From Podarcis cretensis (Eukaryota), in the NCBI GenBank assembly GCA_951804945.1, contig OX638162.1:55366001-55430000 (forward strand): 64,000 nucleotides of DNA, given 5' to 3'. The position numbers and the translations under genes are program-made. Position 1 is the first letter of the stretch, and each line of letters starts with the position of its first letter. The notes under the pieces were generated by a model. That model searched no databases and was not told the origin of the DNA. It was given only the letters and a program-made list of their open reading frames with translations. Shown piece by piece: positions 687 to 63,303 of the stretch.

Positions 687-1678
687 GGGCTCTTCAGTAT
701 TTGGGCTGTGCTCTGTGGAGTGGGAGTGAGAAGGAAGATGCAATACCAGTAAAGAAGAACTTTCATTGCCAGCATTTGCATCCAGACATGTGAAACATCC
801 CACAAGGCTCGGGAGATTTTGTGAGTCAGTTCCCGTTTTCAGCTCTGCCTGCGCTGTTTGGAGAGAGCCCTGCCTCTCTCTGATGTACCCCTGCCAGCAT
901 GTTCAAACCATAGAGACTGATCTGGGTTCACACACAGAGAGGCAGGTGGGTTTGGACTCCTTAACTGTAAACTAGCTACTTTGGAAGGATCCGTGCCATC
1001 ACATCAACGCAAACGTGAGGCTGGCAAAGGAGGCAACCGACCCCCATGGCCTCTGTCTCCTTTTCTGTCCAGCTTTCCTTAGCCCCCAACAGAAGGAAAA
1101 GGGAAGCAGGAAACCTCTGGAGCACAGAAGATGAACTTTTGAGAGGAAACACAAAGTGTTTGGTGATTCCTAGCCTTACATGGTACTTTGGGATATGCTA
1201 AAACCTTCAAAAAGTATTTAAAGGCAGCTGCTTTCTCCCTCCCAAGCTGTTCCTCTCCTTCCTTGGCTTTTCTCCTTCTGTACTTGTAGCCTAGGAAGGC
1301 AGGAAGCCCAGCAGAGAGAGAGGGCCAGCCGGCCGGGGCTTAGGCTTGCTCAGGGTTTGCCTGTGTGTAACCCAAGCTATATTCCCTCCAACCAGCATCA
1401 GTTTGCACCCAGTTTATTGATAGGAGCAAGAAAAGCAAGCTGGATTCCAAGCCTGGTAGTTGGGACAGGGTTAAGAATGTATTTATAAAAGCCTCCTCAA
1501 AATGCGCATCAGTTTCAACATCCCTTTAATAGGAAAGGGAACAGCCTGGCTCTGCCTGCACCTTTATGCAGAGCCACGTGTGCAAATCGTGTGCCCCGAG
1601 TGAACCACGCAGGCCGTTTTGAGGAGGGAGGCAGGCTGAGCACAGATCAAACTGACTGACCATGTTCTGACTATTTAG

Positions 1679-14592
<12,914 letters not shown>

Positions 14593-36400: not shown

Positions 36401-39400
36401 TTTTGTTACACTATCACTGGTTCTGGTGAATAGTCCCCTCACAGGGCCTTTTGAAGACCCCAAAGCTGCAGCTGCCCCCTGCATTCAGCACTGCAATAAG
36501 TTGCTGTTGAGAGTGTGGGATATAAGATACTGTCCGAAGGCAACTTAGAGTGGCCTCCCGGAAGGAGAGCTCCTAGCAATGCAGTCAGAGCTGAGGAATG
36601 CACACAGCTGAAGAATAAAAAGGCAGCTGGCTGCATTTTCCAAGCTGAGAACAAGAAAGCAGGTAAGGGTGACAGTTTGGGGCAAAGCGGAGCCTAGAGG
36701 ATGGAGTGTGGAGGTGCAGTAAGAGGATGGGAGGAAAGGAAGGAAGGAAAGCAAGAAGGTTGAGGACAGGGACAGAGGGGAAGCTTGCTGGGAAGCTTCA
36801 CTCCAGAGCGGGAGGAACAGAAATAGTACGCTTTATTTCCTTGGGTTAAAAAAACATCCTTTTTACCCTATTATACTGAAGAAAGGCCAAAGGAGGGTAA
36901 AAAAGAGATTTTTTTAACCCAAGGAAATAAAGCATACAAATGGACGGAATCAGTGATGAGTTATTTATATGTAAAAAAAATTGTACTGTTTGTTTTATAT
37001 CTGTGTTTTTTAAAAAATATTATATTGCTCTTTGTAAATGGCTTGGAGGTCTTCAGTTGAACAGGTGGTATATAGTCAAAACAAAATAAAAAAATTCCTT
37101 CCAGTAGGACCTTAAAGACCAACTAAGTTAGTTCTAGGTATGAGCTTTCATGTGCATGCACACTTCTTCAGATACACTGAAACAGAAGTCACCAGACCCT
37201 TCTAAATAGTGGGAAGGTGGGGAGGGGTATTACTCAGAAGGGTGGTGGGAATGGGTGATTGGCAGATAGCTGTGATGAGCCTGTTGACGACTCTTAACGA
37301 CTGCAATAGGTCTTACAGGAAAAAGCAAGGGGTGAGAAGGTGAAAAATGGCTTTGTCATGTATAATGAGATAAGAATCCAATGTCTTTGTTAAGACCAGG
37401 TCTCTCCATGGTTTTAAGTTTGGTAATAAGTTGCAATTCAGCAGCTTCTCTTTCCAGTCTATTTCTGAAATTCCTTTGTAATACAACAGCTACTTTGAGA
37501 TCTTGTATAGAATGTCCTGGGAGATTGAAGTGTTCTCCTACTGGTTTCTCTGTCTTGTGATTCCTGATGTCAGATTTATGTCCGTTTATCCTTTGGCGTA
37601 AGGTTTGGCCTGTTTGTCCAATATAGAGAGCTGAAGGACACTGTTGGCATTTGATGGCATACACAATGTTAGACGATGAGCAATTAAATAGTCCCGAGAT
37701 GGTATGTGTGATGTTGTTGGGGCCAGTAATGGTGTTGTCCGGGTGTATGTGGCAGCAAAGTTGGCATCTGGGTTTATTGCAGGCTCTGGTGCCAGTGTCC
37801 GTGTTAAGTCTGGTAGTAGTATTATTGTGGGTTAGGAGTTGTTTAAGATTGGGTGGCTGTCTGTAGGCAATGAAAGGTCTTCCTCCCAGAGCTTGAGAAA
37901 GAGAACTGTCATTGTCCAGGAGAGGTTGTAGATCTCTGATGATGCGTTGTACTGTTTTAACTTGGGAGCTGTATGTGATGACTAGAGGTGTTCTGTTATT
38001 TTCTTTTTTGGGTCTGTCTTGCAGCAAGTTCTCTCTGGGTATCAGTCTGGCTCTGTTGATCTGTTGTCTAACTTCATCTGCTGGGTATTTTAGTTCTAAA
38101 AAGGTTTGCTGTAGATCTCTTAGGTGAGAGTCTCTGTCTGTAGAATTGGAACAGATGCGGCTGTAACGTAGTGCCTGGCTATATACAATGGACTGTTTGG
38201 TATGTTTGGGATGGTAGCTAGAGGCATGTAGATATGTTTGTCGGTCAGTTGGTTTACGGTATAAGGTGGTGTCTATGCGCCCATCCTGTATTTTTATAGT
38301 AGTGTCCAAAAAATGTATTTCTTGCATAGATTGATTCATTGTTAGGTTGATTGTGGGGTGAAAATCATTGAATTTCTGGTGGAAGGTGTCCAGGGTCTGT
38401 TGACCATGTGTCCAGATGATAAAAATATCGTCAATGTATCACAGGTACAAGAGAGGTTTGAGTGGGTAGGAGTTTAGGCACAGATCAGCGGCACAACAAT
38501 GGGCACCCGCATGGCCCCACAGTATGCCAACATCTTCATGGCAGATTTAGAACAACGTTTCCTACAATCAACCTAACAATGAATCAATCTATGCAAGAAA
38601 TACATTTTTTGGACACTACTATAAAAATACAGGATGGGCGCATAGACACCACCTTATACCGTAAAGGGGGCACCCACATATTGGTGCACTGTCTCATTCT
38701 GTTCTTTTTGCCTTTATCTGAAACAGGTTATGAGGAACACCCCCGTGAAGACCTTCGCCAGTGCTACCTTTAGTTCACTTCTGGATGTTTTGCTGTCCAC
38801 AACAGTCTTCCTCATCCTCTCTGTCACCTGCTTCCTGAAGCATGGGATGGCTGCAACTCCTCCCCCACCTGCAGCAGTGGTTGTGGTGGTCATTGCCATC
38901 CTGCTAGAGGTGCTGTCCCTTATCGTCTCCATTAGGTAAATGAGGCAGACTCTGGATCACTCTCACAGGGCGCGTAGGATAGCAGCAGAGGCAGGGCCTG
39001 CTTCTTGGATTTGAAATGGGAATAGCTAAGAATGGGACAGAGAGTTCTGTGAGGGCCTTCGTAGCTCTGTTGTATGGAAAACAGACTCCTCCTTTCACCA
39101 CTTAGAGGTGAGCCAGGACTCTCAGATTTGTACTAGTGGTCCACCCTAGGCCAGGCAAAACCCACTTGAGTCACTTTGGACATAATTAAACGTGTAAGGC
39201 ACCCTAAAGGTGAGAACATGACAGGAAAGGGAAGAGAGCAGGATCCAGCAAAATGGCGGGGCTGCTGCTTCTAGTCTGATTAAGTGAGGAAATCAAGCAT
39301 GCCATTTCCTTGCGTAGAGGCCCGCTCTGAGTGAAGCGGCAGCTATACAGAGAGACTTGCAAAACCATTCCCCTCCGCTCCTTTGCCTTTCTAGGCTCAG

Positions 39401-54860: not shown

Positions 54861-54956
54861 TCAAACCCTATCTATTTCAACAAATACTCTAAGGATATGG
54901 CCAAAAAAATGAATGTAAGCTTGAGTCATCACAGCAAGAGACCTGGTCTGTGCCTA

Positions 54957-55453
54957 CCGTATTTTTTGCCCTATAGGACACACTTTTCCCCCTCCAAAAA
55001 TGAAGGGGAAATGTGTGCGCGTCCTATGGGGTGAATGCAGGCTTTTGCTGAAGCCTGGAGAGCGAGGGGGGTCGGTGTGCACTGACCCCTCTTGCTCTCC
55101 AGGCTTCAGGAAGCTAGCCATGGGAGAGTTGCGCGAAGTCGCGCAGCTCTCCCACGGCTAGCGGAGAGCTTGCCTGCACCCAGAAGTTTGGGGCGCGCTG
55201 AGCTCAGCACGCCCCAGGCTTTGGGCTTCACGCAGCTCTACCCTAGCTGTGGGAGAGCTGCGTGACTTCGCACAGCTCTCCCACGGCTTGCGGATAGCAG
55301 CCTGTTCTGGGGTCGAGGGAAGCTCGGGCTTCCCCTGCCCCAGCCCTGTACCTGGGGGGGAAATAATTTTTTTTTTCTTTATTCCCCCCCCCCAAAAAAA
55401 AAAACCTAGGTGCGTCCTATGGGCCAGTGCGTCCTATGGGGCGAAAAATACGG
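54957..55453. mobile_element. Tc1/mariner-type MITE with internal hairpins
   Basis: TIR ccgtatttttt gccctataggac / gtcctatggggcgaaaaatacgg, TA TSD; internal inverted repeat at about 55048-55109. Confidence 0.85.
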
Positions 55454-56110
55454 TAACTATTATATCAGCCTTCTCAGAGAAGGGTAAATGGGTCTACCAT
55501 ACCATAATGTGGCCTGTATACAGAATGCCATTAGTATGATATTCAGTGTAAAAGAGAAGATTTGGATGCAACTGAAATTAGATGAACCTGTGCAACACAG
55601 AATATCAGGCATCCCATTTTTGAATAACAACAAAACTTTTGTAATGACAAAGCCATTTGCAAAAGCAGAATTCGAGATCTGGTGATCCTGGATTTAAAAA
55701 TCAGCACCACCTCTACGTATTTCCTTTGCATTGCACCCCTCCTTTGACACGTCTGATCGAAAACTGATGCATATGAAATGGAAAGAAAAATGCTTGTGCA
55801 GATTGATTCACTTTTATAAAAATGATGTTTTTCTCCCGGCAAATTATGGAAAGAATTGAGGGTTGTAATGTGAATTGGCTATCAGGTGATACGTATTATC
55901 TCAAGTCCAACAGCTGAATCTCAAGCAATTAGACCTTTCACGCAATTTGAAAAACTGATTCTGAATATCACTGAACACCCCCACTCAAAAAATAATATTG
56001 GTTTTATGCAAAATACTCACTGACCTGGCCATTGAACAATGCTTGACTAGTAAGCAAAATTGGGGAAAGGACCTGGGCGTGGAAATTGTTCCATATGTCA
56101 TAGATATGTG

Positions 56111-56255: not shown

Positions 56256-57039
56256 GATATGTGAATTGGTGCCACCATTTGGGGGACCTGCATTGGCAGA
56301 AATAAGCAAAATTACAAACCAGGATGTACATTGCAACCCATGTCTAGGTTTATTAATAATATTTAAATATACTCAAATTATCACAAGAGGAACCTGCCAC
56401 TTTTCTTCTGGTAGTGGCAAGATTGCCTGTAGCATGAGACTAGAAAGGAATCTCACCTGTAGATCACACAGTGGAAGCAGAATGTAGAGACAACTGCTTT
56501 ATCTGAGAAGCTAAGAGAATACATGCCCTGAATCGATGCTTCGGATATGGGTGGTTTTGTTGAAATATGGCACATTTTTTATAAAACATTCAATTGAGCT
56601 TCTCTGACGACTGGCGCCCACAAACTACGTGTATGGATTTATGGGAGAATTTGACACTATAATAGTCTTCTGCTCTGGGGGAGGGGGTGGGTGGGGAGAA
56701 ACCCTTTTGATAATATTTGTGTTTATATTCTTTTCTTGAAAATGAATAAAATGCTTTAAAAACCAAACGTGTTTACCTCACCCCCCCTTGCTTTTCCCTT
56801 CGGGGTGGGGTTTGGATGGTCGCCCCTGCCCCCACCCCATGGAGGTGGGGAAAGGGGAGCGGGGCCCCTCTCCTCTTGCGCCAAAGCTCAAACTGGCCTT
56901 TGCACCTTCTTGGGGCAATGGGAAAGGCGGCGGCATCAGCATTCGGCCACAACTGGCATTTGGTCCCCATCATCCTCCTTGAGCTGCTGCTTCCTAGGGG
57001 GGGGGGTCCTGCAACCCACGCACAAAGTCCCCCCCCCTG

Positions 57040-57265
57040 CCCTGGAATTGGAGAAGTAGTTGACACCCAGGGTCGGCCTCCTTATCTGTGTCGTCCCCGT
57101 CCCGCCCCCCCCCCAAGGCCTGCTGCTGCTGCTCCTCCCTGAGCGGTTGTGCCTGTTGCTGCCTGGGTGGGGTCCTTCTGCCTGCTGTTGGGTGCAGATA
57201 GGGAAGGAGGCAGCGGCCCCCCCTTGCCACGTGCCTTTCCCCATTGCTCTGGTCATCGTGATCTC
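57040..57265 (-). promoter_or_regulatory. Candidate erythroid 3' enhancer of the divergent alpha globin
   Basis: GATA sites at 57082-57087 and 57196-57201; inverted homology to 63090-63263. Confidence 0.6.
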
Positions 57266-57945
57266 GGGGGACGAGCCTGAGGCGCCCCCCTGCCTGCGCG
57301 GAGACCTCTCCCTGCGCCCTTCGCGGCCTGCGGATGTTTGGGGGGGGGGCTGGCCTCCCCATCATTGAGTGGAAGCAAAGAACACCTAGGACGGGGGTGG
57401 TTTGAGCAGCCTCCCTTTCATGGGCGTAGCCAAGAGGGGGCAGCTCCCCTAAATCAATAGAAATCGACATAAATGCATAGCTAACGTAGGTTCTGCCCCC
57501 CTTAACAAAAGGCCTACCCCCCCCCCAACAAAAATGCCATTCCCCCTTTACTGCAGTTCCGGCATTGCAGCGGGCTGGGCTTTATGACCTTTGGAGGGCC
57601 CTCCAGTTCTGCGATTCTATGCTGTTCTCTCTCAGCACAGGAGTGCAGAGGGGAAAGCCGCAGACTTGCCGGTCCCTCCACTTCCCCGAGGTACGAAAAG
57701 GCTTGATGGTGAATAAACTCATTTATTACCCAGACTTAACCATCCGGTCCCGGGACAATGTGACATTCCCTACGGACAACCTCGAGGGGAGCGCCGTCGA
57801 GGGCTCCTCCGAAGCCCGTCCAGCCCCCCCCCCCAGCCGCCCCCCAGAGAGAGGTGAGGGCTCAGCGCTGCAGTTTAAATAGCCCAAAGCTTTATTAGGA
57901 GGGAGAAGACGGGGAGGGCGCCCGGGCGAGGCCGTCCTGCCCTGC

Positions 57946-58591
57946 CTAGCGGTGGCGGGAGGTCAGGACGCGGGCGACGCTGCCCAGGAATTTGTCCACG
58001 GAAAGGAGGAGCGCCGGGTCGAGGGAGCCGCGGCTGTGGGCACCGACGGTCACCAGGATGCAGTGGTTAAGGCACTGTGGGAGAGAGGAGAGCGCCAGCG
58101 TTAGAGAGAGAGAGCAGGACCCTGGGCCGCCCGACGGGGAGGGCAGCGGGAGGCCGGGGCAGCCTCGGGGAGCGCGACTCACCTCGAAGCTGCTGGGCGA
58201 CACCCGCAGCTGGAAGGCGTGCAGCTCGCTGAGATGGCCGAGGGCGCCGGGCAGGTCGTCCAGGTTCTCGACGGCGCAGCTGAGCGCGTCCACCACCTTC
58301 TTGCCCAGCGCCTTCAGCTGGGCCGAGTCCGGAGAGAGGTCGAGGTGATGGAAGTAGGTCTTGGTGGTGGGGTGCGCCGCCATCAGCCTGCGGGACCAGG
58401 ACAGGATCAGGCCAGCGGCCTCGCCCTCGGGGTTCCAGCCTCCACCCACGGACGGCAGACCTGGGGAGGGTCCCGGAGCCGGCGGGGAGGACTTACCTGG
58501 TGAGCACCTCGACGCCCACGGCTTCGGCGTGTCTGCTCACGGGGACCCAGATGGCCCTCACGCGCTGCTTGTCTTCCTCGGTCAGCCCCAT
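57946..58591 (-). CDS. Divergent alpha-type globin (alphaA-like paralogue, His E7->Leu), 142 aa; exons 58591-58497, 58387-58183, 58074-57946
   Basis: Canonical 95/205/129-nt alpha-globin exons, GT-AG introns. [70 protein letters not shown] box 58638-58643; AATAAA 57891-57896. Confidence 0.93.
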
Positions 58592-59044
58592 CTTGGCAGT
58601 GGGGCGTCCTGGGCGCCGCGCGGGCAGCCAGGCAGCCTTTAATCGGCGCTGCGCAGGGGGCCTCCGACCCGGAGGTCCCGCCCTTCACAGCTGCGTCTGG
58701 GCGCCGCAAGGAGAGGCCTTGCGTGGGCACCACTAGCTGGCTGAAGGCCAGCAACGCGCAAGAGGCCCGGTGGGGACGTGCGTGGCGCCTGGCTCAGTTT
58801 CTTTCCCTGTTTTCGAGCGCTTAGAACTCAGCCCCCCCCCCTCCACCCCCAGGTCGGTGGCGCTCCAGGCGGCTAAGGCTCAAAGGGAGATGCATCAGAC
58901 GGCCAACTCAGGTGGACTCACAGACCACCGTCGAGGCCACTTGGAGCCCGCGGGCGCCTGCTTCTCTCCAATGGGTTTTGGGGACCTTCTCCGGAGGGTA
59001 GTCGCTTACGGGGGCTCTTGGGTATGCCTCTGCCGCCCCCGTCA

Positions 59045-59335
59045 GCCTAGAAACTCTCCGGGTGACCCGGGCCAGTCACAGTCCACCCAATCCGCTTTGA
59101 AAGCCTTCCAAGTTGGTGGTCGTCACTGCCTCTTGTGGGAGAGAGTTCCATGTGCTGCATGAAGGACTTCCTTTTCTGTGTCCTGAATCTTCCTGCATTC
59201 AGCTTCGTTTGGTGTCCACAAGTTCTAGATTAGTGTGATAACACAGAGAGAGAAACGATTCTCTACCCGTTTTCTTCATGCCATGCGTAATTTTATAGAC
59301 TTCTATCATGTCACCTCTCCCTCGTATTTCCTGTA
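59045..59335 (-). mobile_element. CR1-like LINE fragment
   Basis: Minus frame RGRGDMIEVYKITHGMKK. Confidence 0.65.
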
Positions 59336-60440
59336 AAGAGGGGTCCCCAGACCCCAGCGTAACCCACCCAGAGGGTCCGTGGAACAACTGTTCAGCACGT
59401 CCCGTTTTTGGGGGGTCGTGGTCTCCCGCAAGAGCACAGCGCCCCAAATGCACGCTCCCGCCCCTGCCCCCCCCCCGCTGCTTCCCTCCACTGATACCGT
59501 AAAGCTTCGCAGGGCGCCATCCCCGAGTTACCGCCGCCCTCTCCGAGTCTCTTCCGCAGGTGCCTTCAGCCAGGCTCCCACGACCAAGCACCTTGGATCA
59601 CTCTTCCGTGGAGAAGGGGACAAATATCCTGCAAGGGGTCCCCTTCTTTTAAATGCTGCGTTAGTTTAACCCAGGAATTCTGCTGCCACTCACTGTTCTG
59701 CATTCTCACGGACGCTTTTTGCACCCACTGTGTTGCCCATAGGCATGCACGGAAAGAGTGTGCGTGTGGATAGGAATGCAGGGGCATGCAACCCACCCTG
59801 GACGCCTGTCATAACCGCTGCTGTGTTGGTGAAGGGCGTGGGGGACACACGTTGGTTTAAGTCCGCGGCAAAGGCCTCAACTTCCAGGAAAGTCTTGAGG
59901 CCTCGGCTCCTCGGCACGTGGTGACTCTTCATTTGAGCTCTTCCTTGCCCGCCTTGCTCCGTAGATTATTTCCGGGAAACCCCGCCCCCCTTCCTTAAAC
60001 CAGCTTTTTATTTCAAGTATAAAACTGGAATGATTAGAGGCTTCGTGTTTTGTTTTTGTTTTTTTTTTTCAATTTTTTTATTGATTTTCCAAATTTATAA
60101 CAAATAGAAAAAGAACATCAAATATACAAACAAAGAAACATTTATCTTAACTGTAATAATTCCACTTTTGTTAACCTTGTTAGGTGACTTCCTCAAATCC
60201 CTCTGGCTGAGTTTCCATATAAATTATTGTAGCAGTTTTCCAAAACTATTTGCACATAAAATTTACTTAGTCAAATTAACATCTATCTTCCTTTTCATTT
60301 AAACTTTAAACATATTATTCTATAACATCACATATTTAAATCCTAGGCCTATCTTATATTCACAAGTAATTTTATTTAAATTGAAATATACATTTATTAA
60401 GAAACCAGAAGCCTTTCTACTTGGAATAATAGGTCTAGAA

Positions 60441-60589
60441 TAGGTCTGTGTATCTGAAGAAGTGTGCATGCACACGAAAGCTCATACCTAGAACTAACTT
60501 AGTTGGTCTTTAAGGTGCTACTGGAAGGAATTTTTTTTCTTTTATTTTGTTTTGACTATGGCAGACCAACACGGCTACCTATCTGTAAC
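60441..60589 (+). mobile_element. Solo Penelope-like terminal repeat nested in the L1
   Basis: Near-identical to the reverse complement of 37075-37177; flanked by taggtctagaa at 60430-60440 and 60590-60600. Confidence 0.85.
60450..60487 (+). ncRNA. Minimal type I hammerhead ribozyme
   Basis: gtat CTGAAGA a gtgtgcatgcacac GAAA gc TC atac: catalytic boxes, palindromic stem II, stem I gtat/atac, AGCT palindrome in place of stem III. Confidence 0.72.
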
Positions 60590-61589
60590 TAGGTCTAGAA
60601 TTGCCCAAGAAAGAAGTCAGATTGTTTTTGTATGCCACAACCGCAGCCAGAATTTTACTGGCCAAAAATTGGAAAGCACAAGAAGTACCAACAGTGGAGG
60701 AATGGCAGATGAAGATGATGGACTTTTGGGGGCTAGCTGACCTGACCGGAAGAGTCCGGCGGCCAAAAGGAGGAGGACTACCAAGAGGAATAGAATAAAT
60801 TTAAAGATTATTTAGCCAAATATGTTAGAGGCTTCGTGTTGGTTGCTGTGCTGCTGTTTGTGTTCCTTGAGACCCACCCGAAGAAATCTGGTCCCAGTAC
60901 TTTGCTGTGCCGGATACCAAATACTGCACAACGAAGGACATCTGTTTAATACCCATCTTGCCAAACTTCCAACAAAGTGAGAGTGCCCCCCCCCCACAAA
61001 GGGATGTCCCAGACAGTTGATAGGTATGCGTCAGGGACCGTCTGGGTGGGTGACGTGGACCACCAACTGGGAACCCCTGGTCTACAGTATTCCAAGTGTG
61101 GTCGTACCAGAGATTTGTGGAATGGCATTTTGATGATAGCCACAGTTTTAAATTCCAATGCCTTTCCTAAGTTTGCTCGGGAGTCCTCGGAGAGCTACCT
61201 CGCGGGGAGGCCAAGGACAAAATGTCCGCATTCAGCTAGACTGACTGCTACCCTTCTCTGCCGCCCCCGCCGCCGGCTGGTTTGCTGCGCAAAGGAAAGA
61301 CCCATTTGACTTGGTTTGGTTCGGGCCGGAGCCCCGCGGGGGCGGACGAGGACCTCATCCTGGCTTTTTGGAAGGCACCATCCCTCCCCTTTCCTCGTGC
61401 GCCTCCGCCACGCGCGGTTCTAGGGAAAGAACAATGGCCGAAAAGGGGGTGTCACGACTAGCAAATGAGGCATGTCATCGCCCAGGGAGAGCCCGACGTA
61501 GATGCCCGGCAAGGCCTGTCTGGGGGGAGGCAGCGGGAATTGCGCGGAGGCTGTTCGTGCGCTCCCTCTCGCATTCTAGCATTAGCCGT

Positions 61590-61680
61590 AAGAGGCGATA
61601 ACGCGGGGAGAAGCCGCAGCGCCGACGGGCGGAGGCCGAGGGAGAGGCCCCAGGCGGGGCGGGGCGCCCTCAATAAAAGG
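61590..61680 (+). promoter_or_regulatory. alphaA-globin proximal promoter
   Basis: GATAA at about 61597, GC box ggggcggggc at about 61656, ATAAAA at 61673. Confidence 0.65.
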
Positions 61681-61723
61681 GCCGCGCGCGCTCCGACGGC
61701 ACCCGAGACTTTGAGCTGCCAAG

Positions 61724-62356
61724 ATGGTGTTGACCGACGACGACAAGAGCCACGTGAAGCATGTTTGGAGCGAGATCCAGTCCCACGCCGGGGACATCGG
61801 CGCCGAGGCCATCACCAGGTAAGTCCGCCCCGTCGGGCAGGGACCCTCTCCCGGGGACGAGGCCGCGGGCCGGGTGGGACTCGGACCCTCGTCTTCCTGC
61901 TCCTCTCCTCCTCCTCTTCCCGCAGGATGTTCGCAGCGCACCCCACCACTAAGACCTACTTCGCGCACATGGACGTGAGCCCCGGCTCTGCGGACATCAA
62001 GGCGCACGGCAAGAAGGTCGCGGCCGCCATCGGCGAGGCCGTGGCGCACATCGACAACATCGCCGGCGCCCTCGACAAGCTCAGCGACCTGCACGCCCAG
62101 AAGATGCGCGTGGACCCCGTCAACTTCGCGGTGAGTCTCTCTCTCCTCCCCGTCGGGGCTCCGGGGCGGGTGGGATCCCTGCTTCGCTCCGTCCGGGGCC
62201 CCGTCTAACGCTCCCCCTCTCCCGCAGCTGCTGAGCCACTGCTTCCTGGTGGCCATCGCCGCCCACCACCAGGGGCTCCTCAAGGCCAGCACCCTCGTCT
62301 CCATGGACAAGTTCCTGGGCCGCGTCGGCACCGTGCTGACCTGCAAGTACCGCTAG
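61724..62356 (+). CDS. HBA: Hemoglobin alpha-A-like chain, 142 aa; exons 61724-61818, 61926-62130, 62228-62356
   Basis: 95/205/129-nt exons. [54 protein letters not shown]; His58, His87, Phe43, Tyr140 and Arg141 intact; AATAAA 62425-62430. Confidence 0.96.
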
Positions 62357-63089
62357 GCCCCACGAAGCCCAAGCCCGCCGCAGAGGAGCCGCCTCGACGC
62401 CGCCCTGCGACCCCCAAAGCCCACAATAAACCTGCTCTTGACTCTCCCTGATCTCTCGCGTCTTCTTGGGCTGAACTGGGGGCGGGAGGGAAGAAGGTCG
62501 AGGGGGACCCCGGGGGCCTGGACGGCTCTGGCGAGGGAGACCCCGTCCCGCGGGATAGCCCCTAACTTGGCGCTCCTTGAACCCGGGGCAGTTGGACCGA
62601 GTCGCCTGCTAGGTGGGGGCCCTGAAAGAGCGCAGGCACGCGTGGGGCGCAGAGTCAGCCCCAGAAGGGCTCCGTCTCCTTGGGGGTCTTCCTTCCAGGT
62701 CCCTTCGGGGGACTTGTGGAGTGGGGCTCCCCAGGCCTTTGCGCCCCTGGCTGGACTGACTGGGATGAAGCAGACGACCTATTCGGAAGGGCCGGTCTCG
62801 GGGTTGTGCTCGCAGAAGGGCCCCGCCCGGCTCCGTCCAGCCCGAAAGCCCCGCGAGCCACAGCTGCCAGCCCGTGTAGGCAATAGGGCCCGGGTTGGAT
62901 GCAATAGAAGGCAGCTTCCTAGGATCCTGCGCTCAAGGGCAGAGGCAGCCCCCTCCCCACAGCCAAGGCCGGGGGGGCAGTGCCAGGGTCCCCTCCACAC
63001 CCGCACTGAGAGGGCACGGGAAGAGGCCCCCAAGCAGGAGCCCTGCCTGGGAGGGGGCGACTCGGGCTCTGGAACCACCGCCAGTTCCT

Positions 63090-63303
63090 GAGATCAGAGG
63101 ACCCACCAGAGCGATGGGAAGGGCGCATGGCAAGGGGGGGCGCCCTCCCTCCCCCGCTATCTGCTCACAGCAGCCAGGAGAAGGAGGCACCCCAGGGCGG
63201 GTCGGGAGGTCTGGGGAGCAGATAAGCAGACACACAGGGTGCCAACATCTACCCCAACTCCAGGAGGCCTGCGGGGGGGGGGGCGGTTAGGCCTCTGCTA
63301 TCT
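63090..63303 (+). promoter_or_regulatory. Candidate erythroid 3' enhancer of alphaA globin
   Basis: GATA sites at 63157-63162, 63220-63225 and 63298-63303, about 0.75 kb after the stop; homologous to 57040-57265. Confidence 0.62.

Follow-up and report, generated by a model that had tools for sequence, protein, structure and literature searches.

The locus described here raises the question of why a short non-coding element should occur twice, in mirror image, behind two alpha-type globin genes of the lizard Podarcis cretensis, and whether selection has kept it there. The window analysed is a stretch of 64,000 nucleotides of contig OX638162.1 (C14 below; window = C14:55366001-55430000), and coordinates without a prefix are positions in this window. 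It contains two three-exon alpha-type genes that are transcribed divergently (gene A from the minus strand, gene B from the plus strand). The pair is flanked by an ADCY9-like and a GSG1L-like gene and is not part of the canonical alphaD-alphaA-GbY cluster. The comparisons reported below suggest, with moderate confidence, that the two elements go back to a single non-coding element, duplicated together with an alphaA gene and retained by selection as a local red-cell enhancer of the GATA1/TAL1 type.

In the mirror alignment first pointed out by an initial annotation of the window, the reverse complement of 57040-57265 pairs with 63090-63263 (plus strand) at 137 of 169 columns (z ~11; global alignment, 300 dinucleotide shuffles), and the two cores differ in length by large indels (226 bp in copy A, 174 bp in copy B). 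Self-BLAST of the window recovers a core at 57162-57253/63105-63196 with 77% identity over 93 columns (E 5e-11). The homology reaches about 100 bp nearer to the genes than the core first described; over 57360-57029 versus 62975-63282 the score is 148, against a mean of 47, a standard deviation of 7 and a maximum of 73 in 300 local shuffles. The element is 310-330 bp long and lies 0.6-0.9 kb past each stop codon. Copy A occupies 57029-57360 on the minus strand, 585-917 bp after the stop of gene A, and has its mirror copy as the sole other genome-wide match; copy B occupies 62975-63282 on the plus strand, 618-926 bp after the stop of gene B. The earlier core begins 681 bp (gene A) and 734 bp (gene B) after the stops, in agreement with the distance of about 0.7 kb given before.

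A diagonal scan in 100-bp windows gave z values of up to 14 in the element, -0.7 to 2.1 in the distal flank and -1.2 to 1.3 in the spacer between gene and element, and the absence of visible alignment in the intervening flanks was thereby borne out. Elsewhere in the unit the same scan gave 3.5 in the 3' untranslated region (UTR), 1.2 and 2.6 in the introns and at most 1.0 in the promoter. Only about 100 of the 460 bp of the gene A spacer are repeat-like in a local scan. The indels of the element are not multiples of three and the element is non-coding; Rfam has no match over it, and an RNA gene was rejected as a candidate, the one Rfam match (E 0.08) being far below the cut-off and outside the element. 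Measured between the two paralogues, no other non-coding part of the duplicated unit is as well conserved as the element, and the earlier proposal that gene and element were duplicated as a unit is supported by this low-copy island.

The element is real, low-copy and non-dispersed, and was duplicated along with an alphaA-type gene. A genome-wide DNA search, which skips common words so that its match counts are lower bounds, gave at least three matches for copy B and at least two for copy A, and these are the two copies and a partial copy at canonical alphaA; the check for a high-copy repeat that had been proposed thus returned only two copies and a partial third. Contigs from four DNA runs of related organisms, close to the level of congeners, span copy B and its downstream flank and one spans copy A, with a summed depth over the elements (a rough measure) of 7-42 against thousands at repeats, and copies that are 77% identical cannot be a false duplication. 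A dispersed repeat or an assembly artefact is for these reasons a very improbable source of the pair, although the region does hold an instructive case: a second shared mirror block upstream of the genes (59331-59415/60990-61087; score 61, z 9.5, unique in 560 kb) was taken as a further co-duplicated element and had to be rejected as a dispersed repeat, with 13 further matches on 12 contigs. Its plus-side block (60990-61087) belongs to a dispersed repeat family with 14 genome matches.

Both copies keep two WGATAR sites, as the initial annotation had stated, at 57196-57201 and 57082-57087 in copy A and at 63157-63162 and 63220-63225 in copy B; a third, at 63298-63303, stands beside copy B only. 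The gene-proximal WGATAR of each copy is part of a half-E-box/GATA composite of the form CTG-N8-WGATAR, at 57185-57201 (plus strand) in copy A and at 63157-63173 (minus strand) in copy B, where the spacing is retained despite a 3-bp indel relative to copy A; the second WGATAR lies on the minus strand in copy A and on the plus strand in copy B. Indels of 15 and 22 bp lie between the two GATA sites, and identical blocks lie on the sites themselves. The form TGN7-9WGATAR is described as the GATA1:TAL1 composite site, for example in the BCL11A +58/+55 enhancers, in passages of bioRxiv 2023.05.27.542323. In the 560 kb around the locus, 12 of 593 WGATAR sites have the CTG-N8 form. When pairs of sites at most 130 bp apart with a GC fraction of at least 0.6 and a TG composite were sought over the same 560 kb, all five pairs with a TGN7-9 composite lay within 5.3 kb of an alpha-globin gene, a distance within which 84 of 651 GC-rich tiles fall. 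Two of the five are independent of the element, one 3' of canonical alphaA and one upstream of alphaD, and homology of the element with either was rejected, since shuffles reached, or nearly reached, the same scores. The enrichment of such pairs beside alpha-globin genes is supporting, not decisive. A cluster of a Maf recognition element with GATA, sought near NPRL3 by a strict pattern, was not found, so that this positive control failed.

Gene B encodes an alphaA globin of 142 amino acids at 61724-62356 (plus strand; exons 61724-61818, 61926-62130 and 62228-62356), with an AATAAA signal at 62425-62430 (plus strand) and a second exon that shares 96% identity with lacertid alphaA proteins. A plus-strand tract, 61641-63130, is 95% identical over 1507 columns to canonical alphaA (C14:55609485-55610954), from about 83 bp before the ATG to a point inside the element that precedes both GATA sites. 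Over the stretch that starts with exon 1 and includes the 3' UTR the two genes show 8 differences, against 54 alignment columns in the 499-bp spacer, which suggests that the body of gene B has been homogenised with canonical alphaA by gene conversion. Just past the breakpoint, a decayed remnant of the element at canonical alphaA was looked for without a significant result (z 1.0-2.1). Canonical alphaA has a GC-rich GATA pair of its own with a CTG-N7 composite, 1.2 kb after its stop (C14:55611411-55611486), which does not align with the element and may itself be the true equivalent of the chicken 3' enhancer.

The proteins of A and B are identical at 72 of 142 residues (73 of 143 with the stop), in line with the divergence of about 50% reported before. 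The initial annotation took the retention of the element despite this divergence as a sign of continued erythroid control; what stands is that the element is conserved and the odd globin intact and spliced, whereas the divergence alone gives no date for the element, given that the body of gene B appears to be homogenised with canonical alphaA. Four-fold sites (32 of 44 identical between A and B) are uninformative for dating, since the control of B against alphaD is equally high (23 of 30).

Several observations weigh against an enhancer kept by selection. Canonical alphaA is without the GATA half of the element, so that the element is not needed by every alphaA. The thresholds for GATA pairs (130 bp, GC of at least 0.6) were set after the element had been seen; three strict CTG clusters were observed and 1 of 20 shuffles also reached three, and without the GC filter 8 (CTG) or 39 (TG) clusters qualify. 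Neither copy holds an NF-E2/AP-1 motif (TGA[CG]TCA), and GATA motifs also bind non-erythroid GATA factors. The introns and the 3' UTR, too, retain faint homology between A and B, and the conservation is measured between two paralogues, where conversion between inverted copies could mimic it. A rival reading sees the element as a neutral remnant or an old conversion tract, dating back tens of millions of years to the origin of the inverted pair or to its last exchange of sequence; it would be the stretch that escaped replacement, and its GATA sites would persist by chance. In favour of this reading, the contrast between gene B and canonical alphaA indicates active conversion in the family, the introns still share short exact matches (one 13-mer and 9-mers), the four-fold sites cannot date the split of A and B, and at about 77% identity the chance survival of two 6-bp sites is estimated at a few per cent. 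Such a remnant would nevertheless hardly be expected to exceed the proximal promoter and the introns so far in similarity and to drop to background level in the flanking DNA, most of which is not repetitive, to have its identical blocks placed at the GATA sites and indels of 15 and 22 bp in the stretch that separates these sites, or to be matched by independent GATA-composite pairs beside other alpha genes, and it is regarded as unlikely.

Somewhat less likely still is a function other than that of an erythroid enhancer of A and B, be it a termination or boundary element, an element belonging to the GSG1L-like gene, or a GATA4/5/6 enhancer that drives the odd globin in another tissue. The element does follow closely on the poly(A) sites, a gene A contig extends to 57455, close to it, and the protein of gene A is unlike an O2 carrier; an exon of the GSG-1 family lies near copy B (C14:55432786), and the GSG1L-like gene starts about 3.5 kb past that copy. 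Copy A, however, is far from GSG1L and yet keeps the motifs, and the half-E-box/GATA composite is the GATA1:TAL1 signature. A CTCF site was rejected as a shared feature: a CTCF consensus fits copy B only, with two mismatches, a level seen 1.5 times per kb.

A local GATA1/TAL1-type enhancer would work as follows. GATA1, in a complex with TAL1/LMO2/LDB1, would occupy both the composite site and the other GATA site, and the element thus bound would activate the promoter about 1.3-1.6 kb away. The displaced genes could then be expressed in erythroid cells without relying much on the regulatory elements of NPRL3. Gene A would depend on the element most, since its proximal 250 bp hold a TATA-like box and a GC box and no GATA, CCAAT or CACCC motif; a scan of promoter motifs found GATA in the promoters of gene B, canonical alphaA and both alphaD genes. 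At the TATA position the box reads GATAAA in canonical alphaA (C14:55609515), AATAAA in gene B (61672-61677) and ATTAAA in gene A.

Gene A is an odd alphaA-type globin gene of 142 codons at 57946-58591 (minus strand; exons 58591-58497, 58387-58183 and 58074-57946), its three exons being separated by introns at alpha-type positions. Its AATAAA signal lies at 57891-57896 (minus strand), with a second at 57722-57727, and contigs of two runs end at 57866. Both introns are skipped at their canonical ends in contigs of three of four presumed RNA runs (three studies, one related organism); the run type was guessed, depth in these runs cannot rank the genes, and the blank of the fourth run on either gene is no evidence, nor is the fact that none of the four runs covers the elements. 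Full-length orthologues with 90-99% identity, known under automatic names only, are present in Podarcis lilfordi, P. muralis, P. raffonei, Lacerta agilis and Zootoca vivipara, and the gene is thus intact in three lacertid genera; one P. muralis UniRef entry of this type has an aberrant C-terminus. Among the coding differences listed for gene A, 7 of 10 are silent.

At the E7 codon (58306-58308, minus strand) Leu replaces the distal His. Gene A and all five lacertid orthologues carry Leu at E7, Ser at G1 and Ser at G4, whereas of 121 other proteins 120 have His at E7, 119 Asp at G1 and 119 Asn at G4. The chain therefore departs from an O2-transport alpha chain at E7 and at the alpha1-beta2 contact (Asp G1, Asn G4), and keeps F8 His, CD1 Phe, C7 Tyr, E11 Val and B10 Leu; its predicted fold is that of a normal globin (predicted local distance difference test score, 82.6). 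The sole non-His E7 among the 121 comparison proteins is a Tyr in an alpha-1-like chain of Lacerta agilis with a read-through tail, probably a decaying further copy of lacertid alphaA. In myoglobin, His64 is described as raising O2 affinity and limiting oxidation, and H64L as speeding the binding of nitric oxide (NO) (passages of PMC11495214); H64L also lowers nitrite reduction in myoglobin, unlike in neuroglobin (passages of PMC10623171). Gene A resembles these engineered H64L globins in its apolar E7 and in the retained F8 His, CD1 Phe, E11 Val and B10 Leu, and differs from them as a natural, lineage-conserved alpha chain. Natural changes at E7 are not unique to it, since a turtle alphaA with Gln at E7 is reported in passages of PMC4524481, which also describe the canonical alpha-globin synteny. 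For the product of gene A the prediction is an alpha chain that binds heme, stabilises O2 weakly owing to the E7 Leu and has an altered alpha1-beta2 contact; by analogy it probably serves as a minor, specialised chain and does not carry the bulk of the O2.

The initial annotation also cited the GATA1-bound 3' enhancer of chicken alphaA as lying in a similar position. Passages of PMC2504291, PMC2794187 and PMC11066237 place a GATA1-dependent enhancer less than 1 kb downstream of chicken alphaA. The position of the lizard element (less than 1 kb 3' of an alphaA-type gene) and its clustered GATA sites are like those of this enhancer (CRE-1; GATA1/YY1), and this part of the comparison stands. Unlike it, the lizard element occurs twice and lies between ADCY9-like and GSG1L-like genes, outside the canonical cluster, and not between alphaA and TMEM8A; the chicken enhancer has three GATA1 sites, whereas the lizard copies share two WGATAR sites and only copy B has a third beside it; and canonical lizard alphaA, which corresponds to chicken alphaA by position, is without the GATA half and carries a different GATA pair. 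The chicken element is absent from the multispecies conserved set in the passages of PMC2794187 used here. Because it does not lie at the canonical location, the lizard element is not filed as the chicken 3' enhancer, and the likeness appears to be one of position and motifs. With GATA1:TAL1 erythroid enhancers it shares the TGN7-9WGATAR composite motif, which is present in both copies. The alpha-globin major regulatory element (HS-40/MCS-R2 type) combines an NF-E2/AP-1 motif with GATA sites; the lizard element, unlike it, has no NF-E2/AP-1 site.

That the pair is a displaced locus and not the canonical cluster was missed by the initial annotation, and follows from the gene order on C14, by which the canonical cluster beside NPRL3 is intact. 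The order is displaced alphaD (55149 kb), then a HLH gene, a sarcalumenin-like gene, adenylate cyclase, A and B; a GSG-1 family gene, a DUF4457 gene, GTF3C1, an RNA polymerase subunit, iRhom, MPG and NPRL3; and alphaD, alphaA, a further globin and a DUF3522 gene. It was read from Pfam domains (17 of 111 candidate exons had a Pfam match in one scan), and the names TFAP4, SRL, ADCY9, GSG1L, KATNIP, POLR3K, RHBDF1, GbY and TMEM8A are given here on the basis of domains and synteny. Between the pair and NPRL3 there are 152-162 kb and several genes, and the distance from the pair to canonical alphaA is 181 kb. A search of the genome with the Pfam globin profile gave 11 matches, 6 of them on C14, and the genome holds three alphaA-type and two alphaD-type genes in all, over 465 kb. 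The second alphaD (94%) is 455 kb from the cluster (C14:55149189-55151913 versus 55599814-55606172) and has beside it an 843-bp segment with a GATA pair that is 99% identical to one located 5 kb upstream of canonical alphaD; the 4.6 kb that lie between this segment and alphaD in the cluster were not copied.

Within the window, the sarcalumenin-like gene (1660-14592, plus strand) has a long acidic exon, and the ADCY9-like adenylate cyclase gene (22564-45860, plus strand) begins with an exon of long Ala/Gly/Gln runs and a CpG island; both names rest on domains. A frame of 360 amino acids in an ADCY9 intron (37356-38438, minus strand) is presumably the end of a Penelope-type retroelement (reverse-transcriptase tail and GIY-YIG-like part), an ordinary repeat. 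Palindromic repeats resembling miniature inverted-repeat transposable elements occur at 54955-55455 and 60445-60590, the latter of very high copy number and found upstream of canonical alphaA too. A 2.6-kb segment is present three times at 96-99.5% (C14:55184603-55187213, 55548686-55551322 and 55641551-55644187) and is probably a young mobile element. On C4 (1073179-1572362), three beta-type-looking globin exons are spread over 500 kb, two of them equal in score and opposite in orientation, and beta-globin genes may be dispersed too.

The history of the locus was approached with a tree of 35 proteins, picked from search matches and limited to alphaA/theta rows; an alphaD outgroup was used in a separate tree without gene A. 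The gene A orthologues group with alphaA of Rhineura, iguanians and snakes (96/94), and the B type with Salvator and Varanus (94/84). The approximately unbiased test rejects a single lacertid clade (p 0.015), with the caveat of long branches and of a test chosen after the tree had been seen. The split is still seen (83/85 and 94/84) when gene A is left out, a cordylid then falling on the first side, and single clades of Lacertoidea (p 0.054) and Toxicofera (p 0.10) are not rejected. A profile search of cluster representatives added one cordylid and one snake alphaA, among the seven matches named. With moderate support, the trees hint at an old second alphaA locus in squamates.

An anole alpha-globin is reportedly flanked by ADCY9 and GSG1L, which, if right, would make the locus old and partly known. 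Literature searches on squamate or lizard globin with ADCY9, GSG1L, KATNIP, GBY and Podarcis duplicates gave no paper on this locus as judged by title and start of abstract, and the passages of PMC2529266 consulted hold none on such flanks of anole alpha-globin. In the portions of Hoffmann et al. 2018 (PMC5786229) used here, squamates have one alphaA and one alphaD; anole alphaA is on a separate contig, the king cobra has none, the python a pseudogene and the viper two, mostly ascribed to assembly, and only the gecko has both alpha genes on one scaffold in the table. This pattern fits a second locus, and fragmented assemblies as well. The lizard studied here agrees with that picture in its three-exon genes of the alphaA (HBA) clade and its canonical NPRL3-alphaD-alphaA-GbY-TMEM8A cluster, and departs from it in having three alphaA-type and two alphaD-type genes and one alphaA lineage with E7 Leu. 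A study of Eremias haemoglobin (PMC11117339) reports, in the passages seen, alphaA, alphaD, an extra alphaD2 and unassigned globin peaks, with no mention of gene A. A broader scenario is offered tentatively: in non-gecko squamates, an old second alphaA locus between ADCY9 and GSG1L may have escaped the control of NPRL3 with a 3' GATA1/TAL1 enhancer of its own, snake and iguanian alphaA descending from it; in lacertids its gene would have become a His(E7)->Leu chain with a non-transport role (NO/redox), beside an inverted twin that converts with canonical alphaA. If true, the old second locus would explain the 'misassembled' or missing alphaA of anole, cobra, python and viper.

The element alone resembles a known kind of enhancer, and the displaced locus and the conserved E7-Leu chain add interest. 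This natural alpha chain with Leu at E7, shared by three genera, offers a biochemical target that is both cheap and clear. Amniote alpha-globin genes are seen as tied to their place next to NPRL3, since the main enhancers lie in the introns of that gene. Candidate portable GATA elements accompany both displaced alphaA genes and one displaced alphaD, and, if the reading of the element as a local red-cell enhancer is true, alpha genes expressed 150 kb away with such elements would be a direct test of how globin genes escape their control region and would revise the two-gene picture of squamate alpha-globins.

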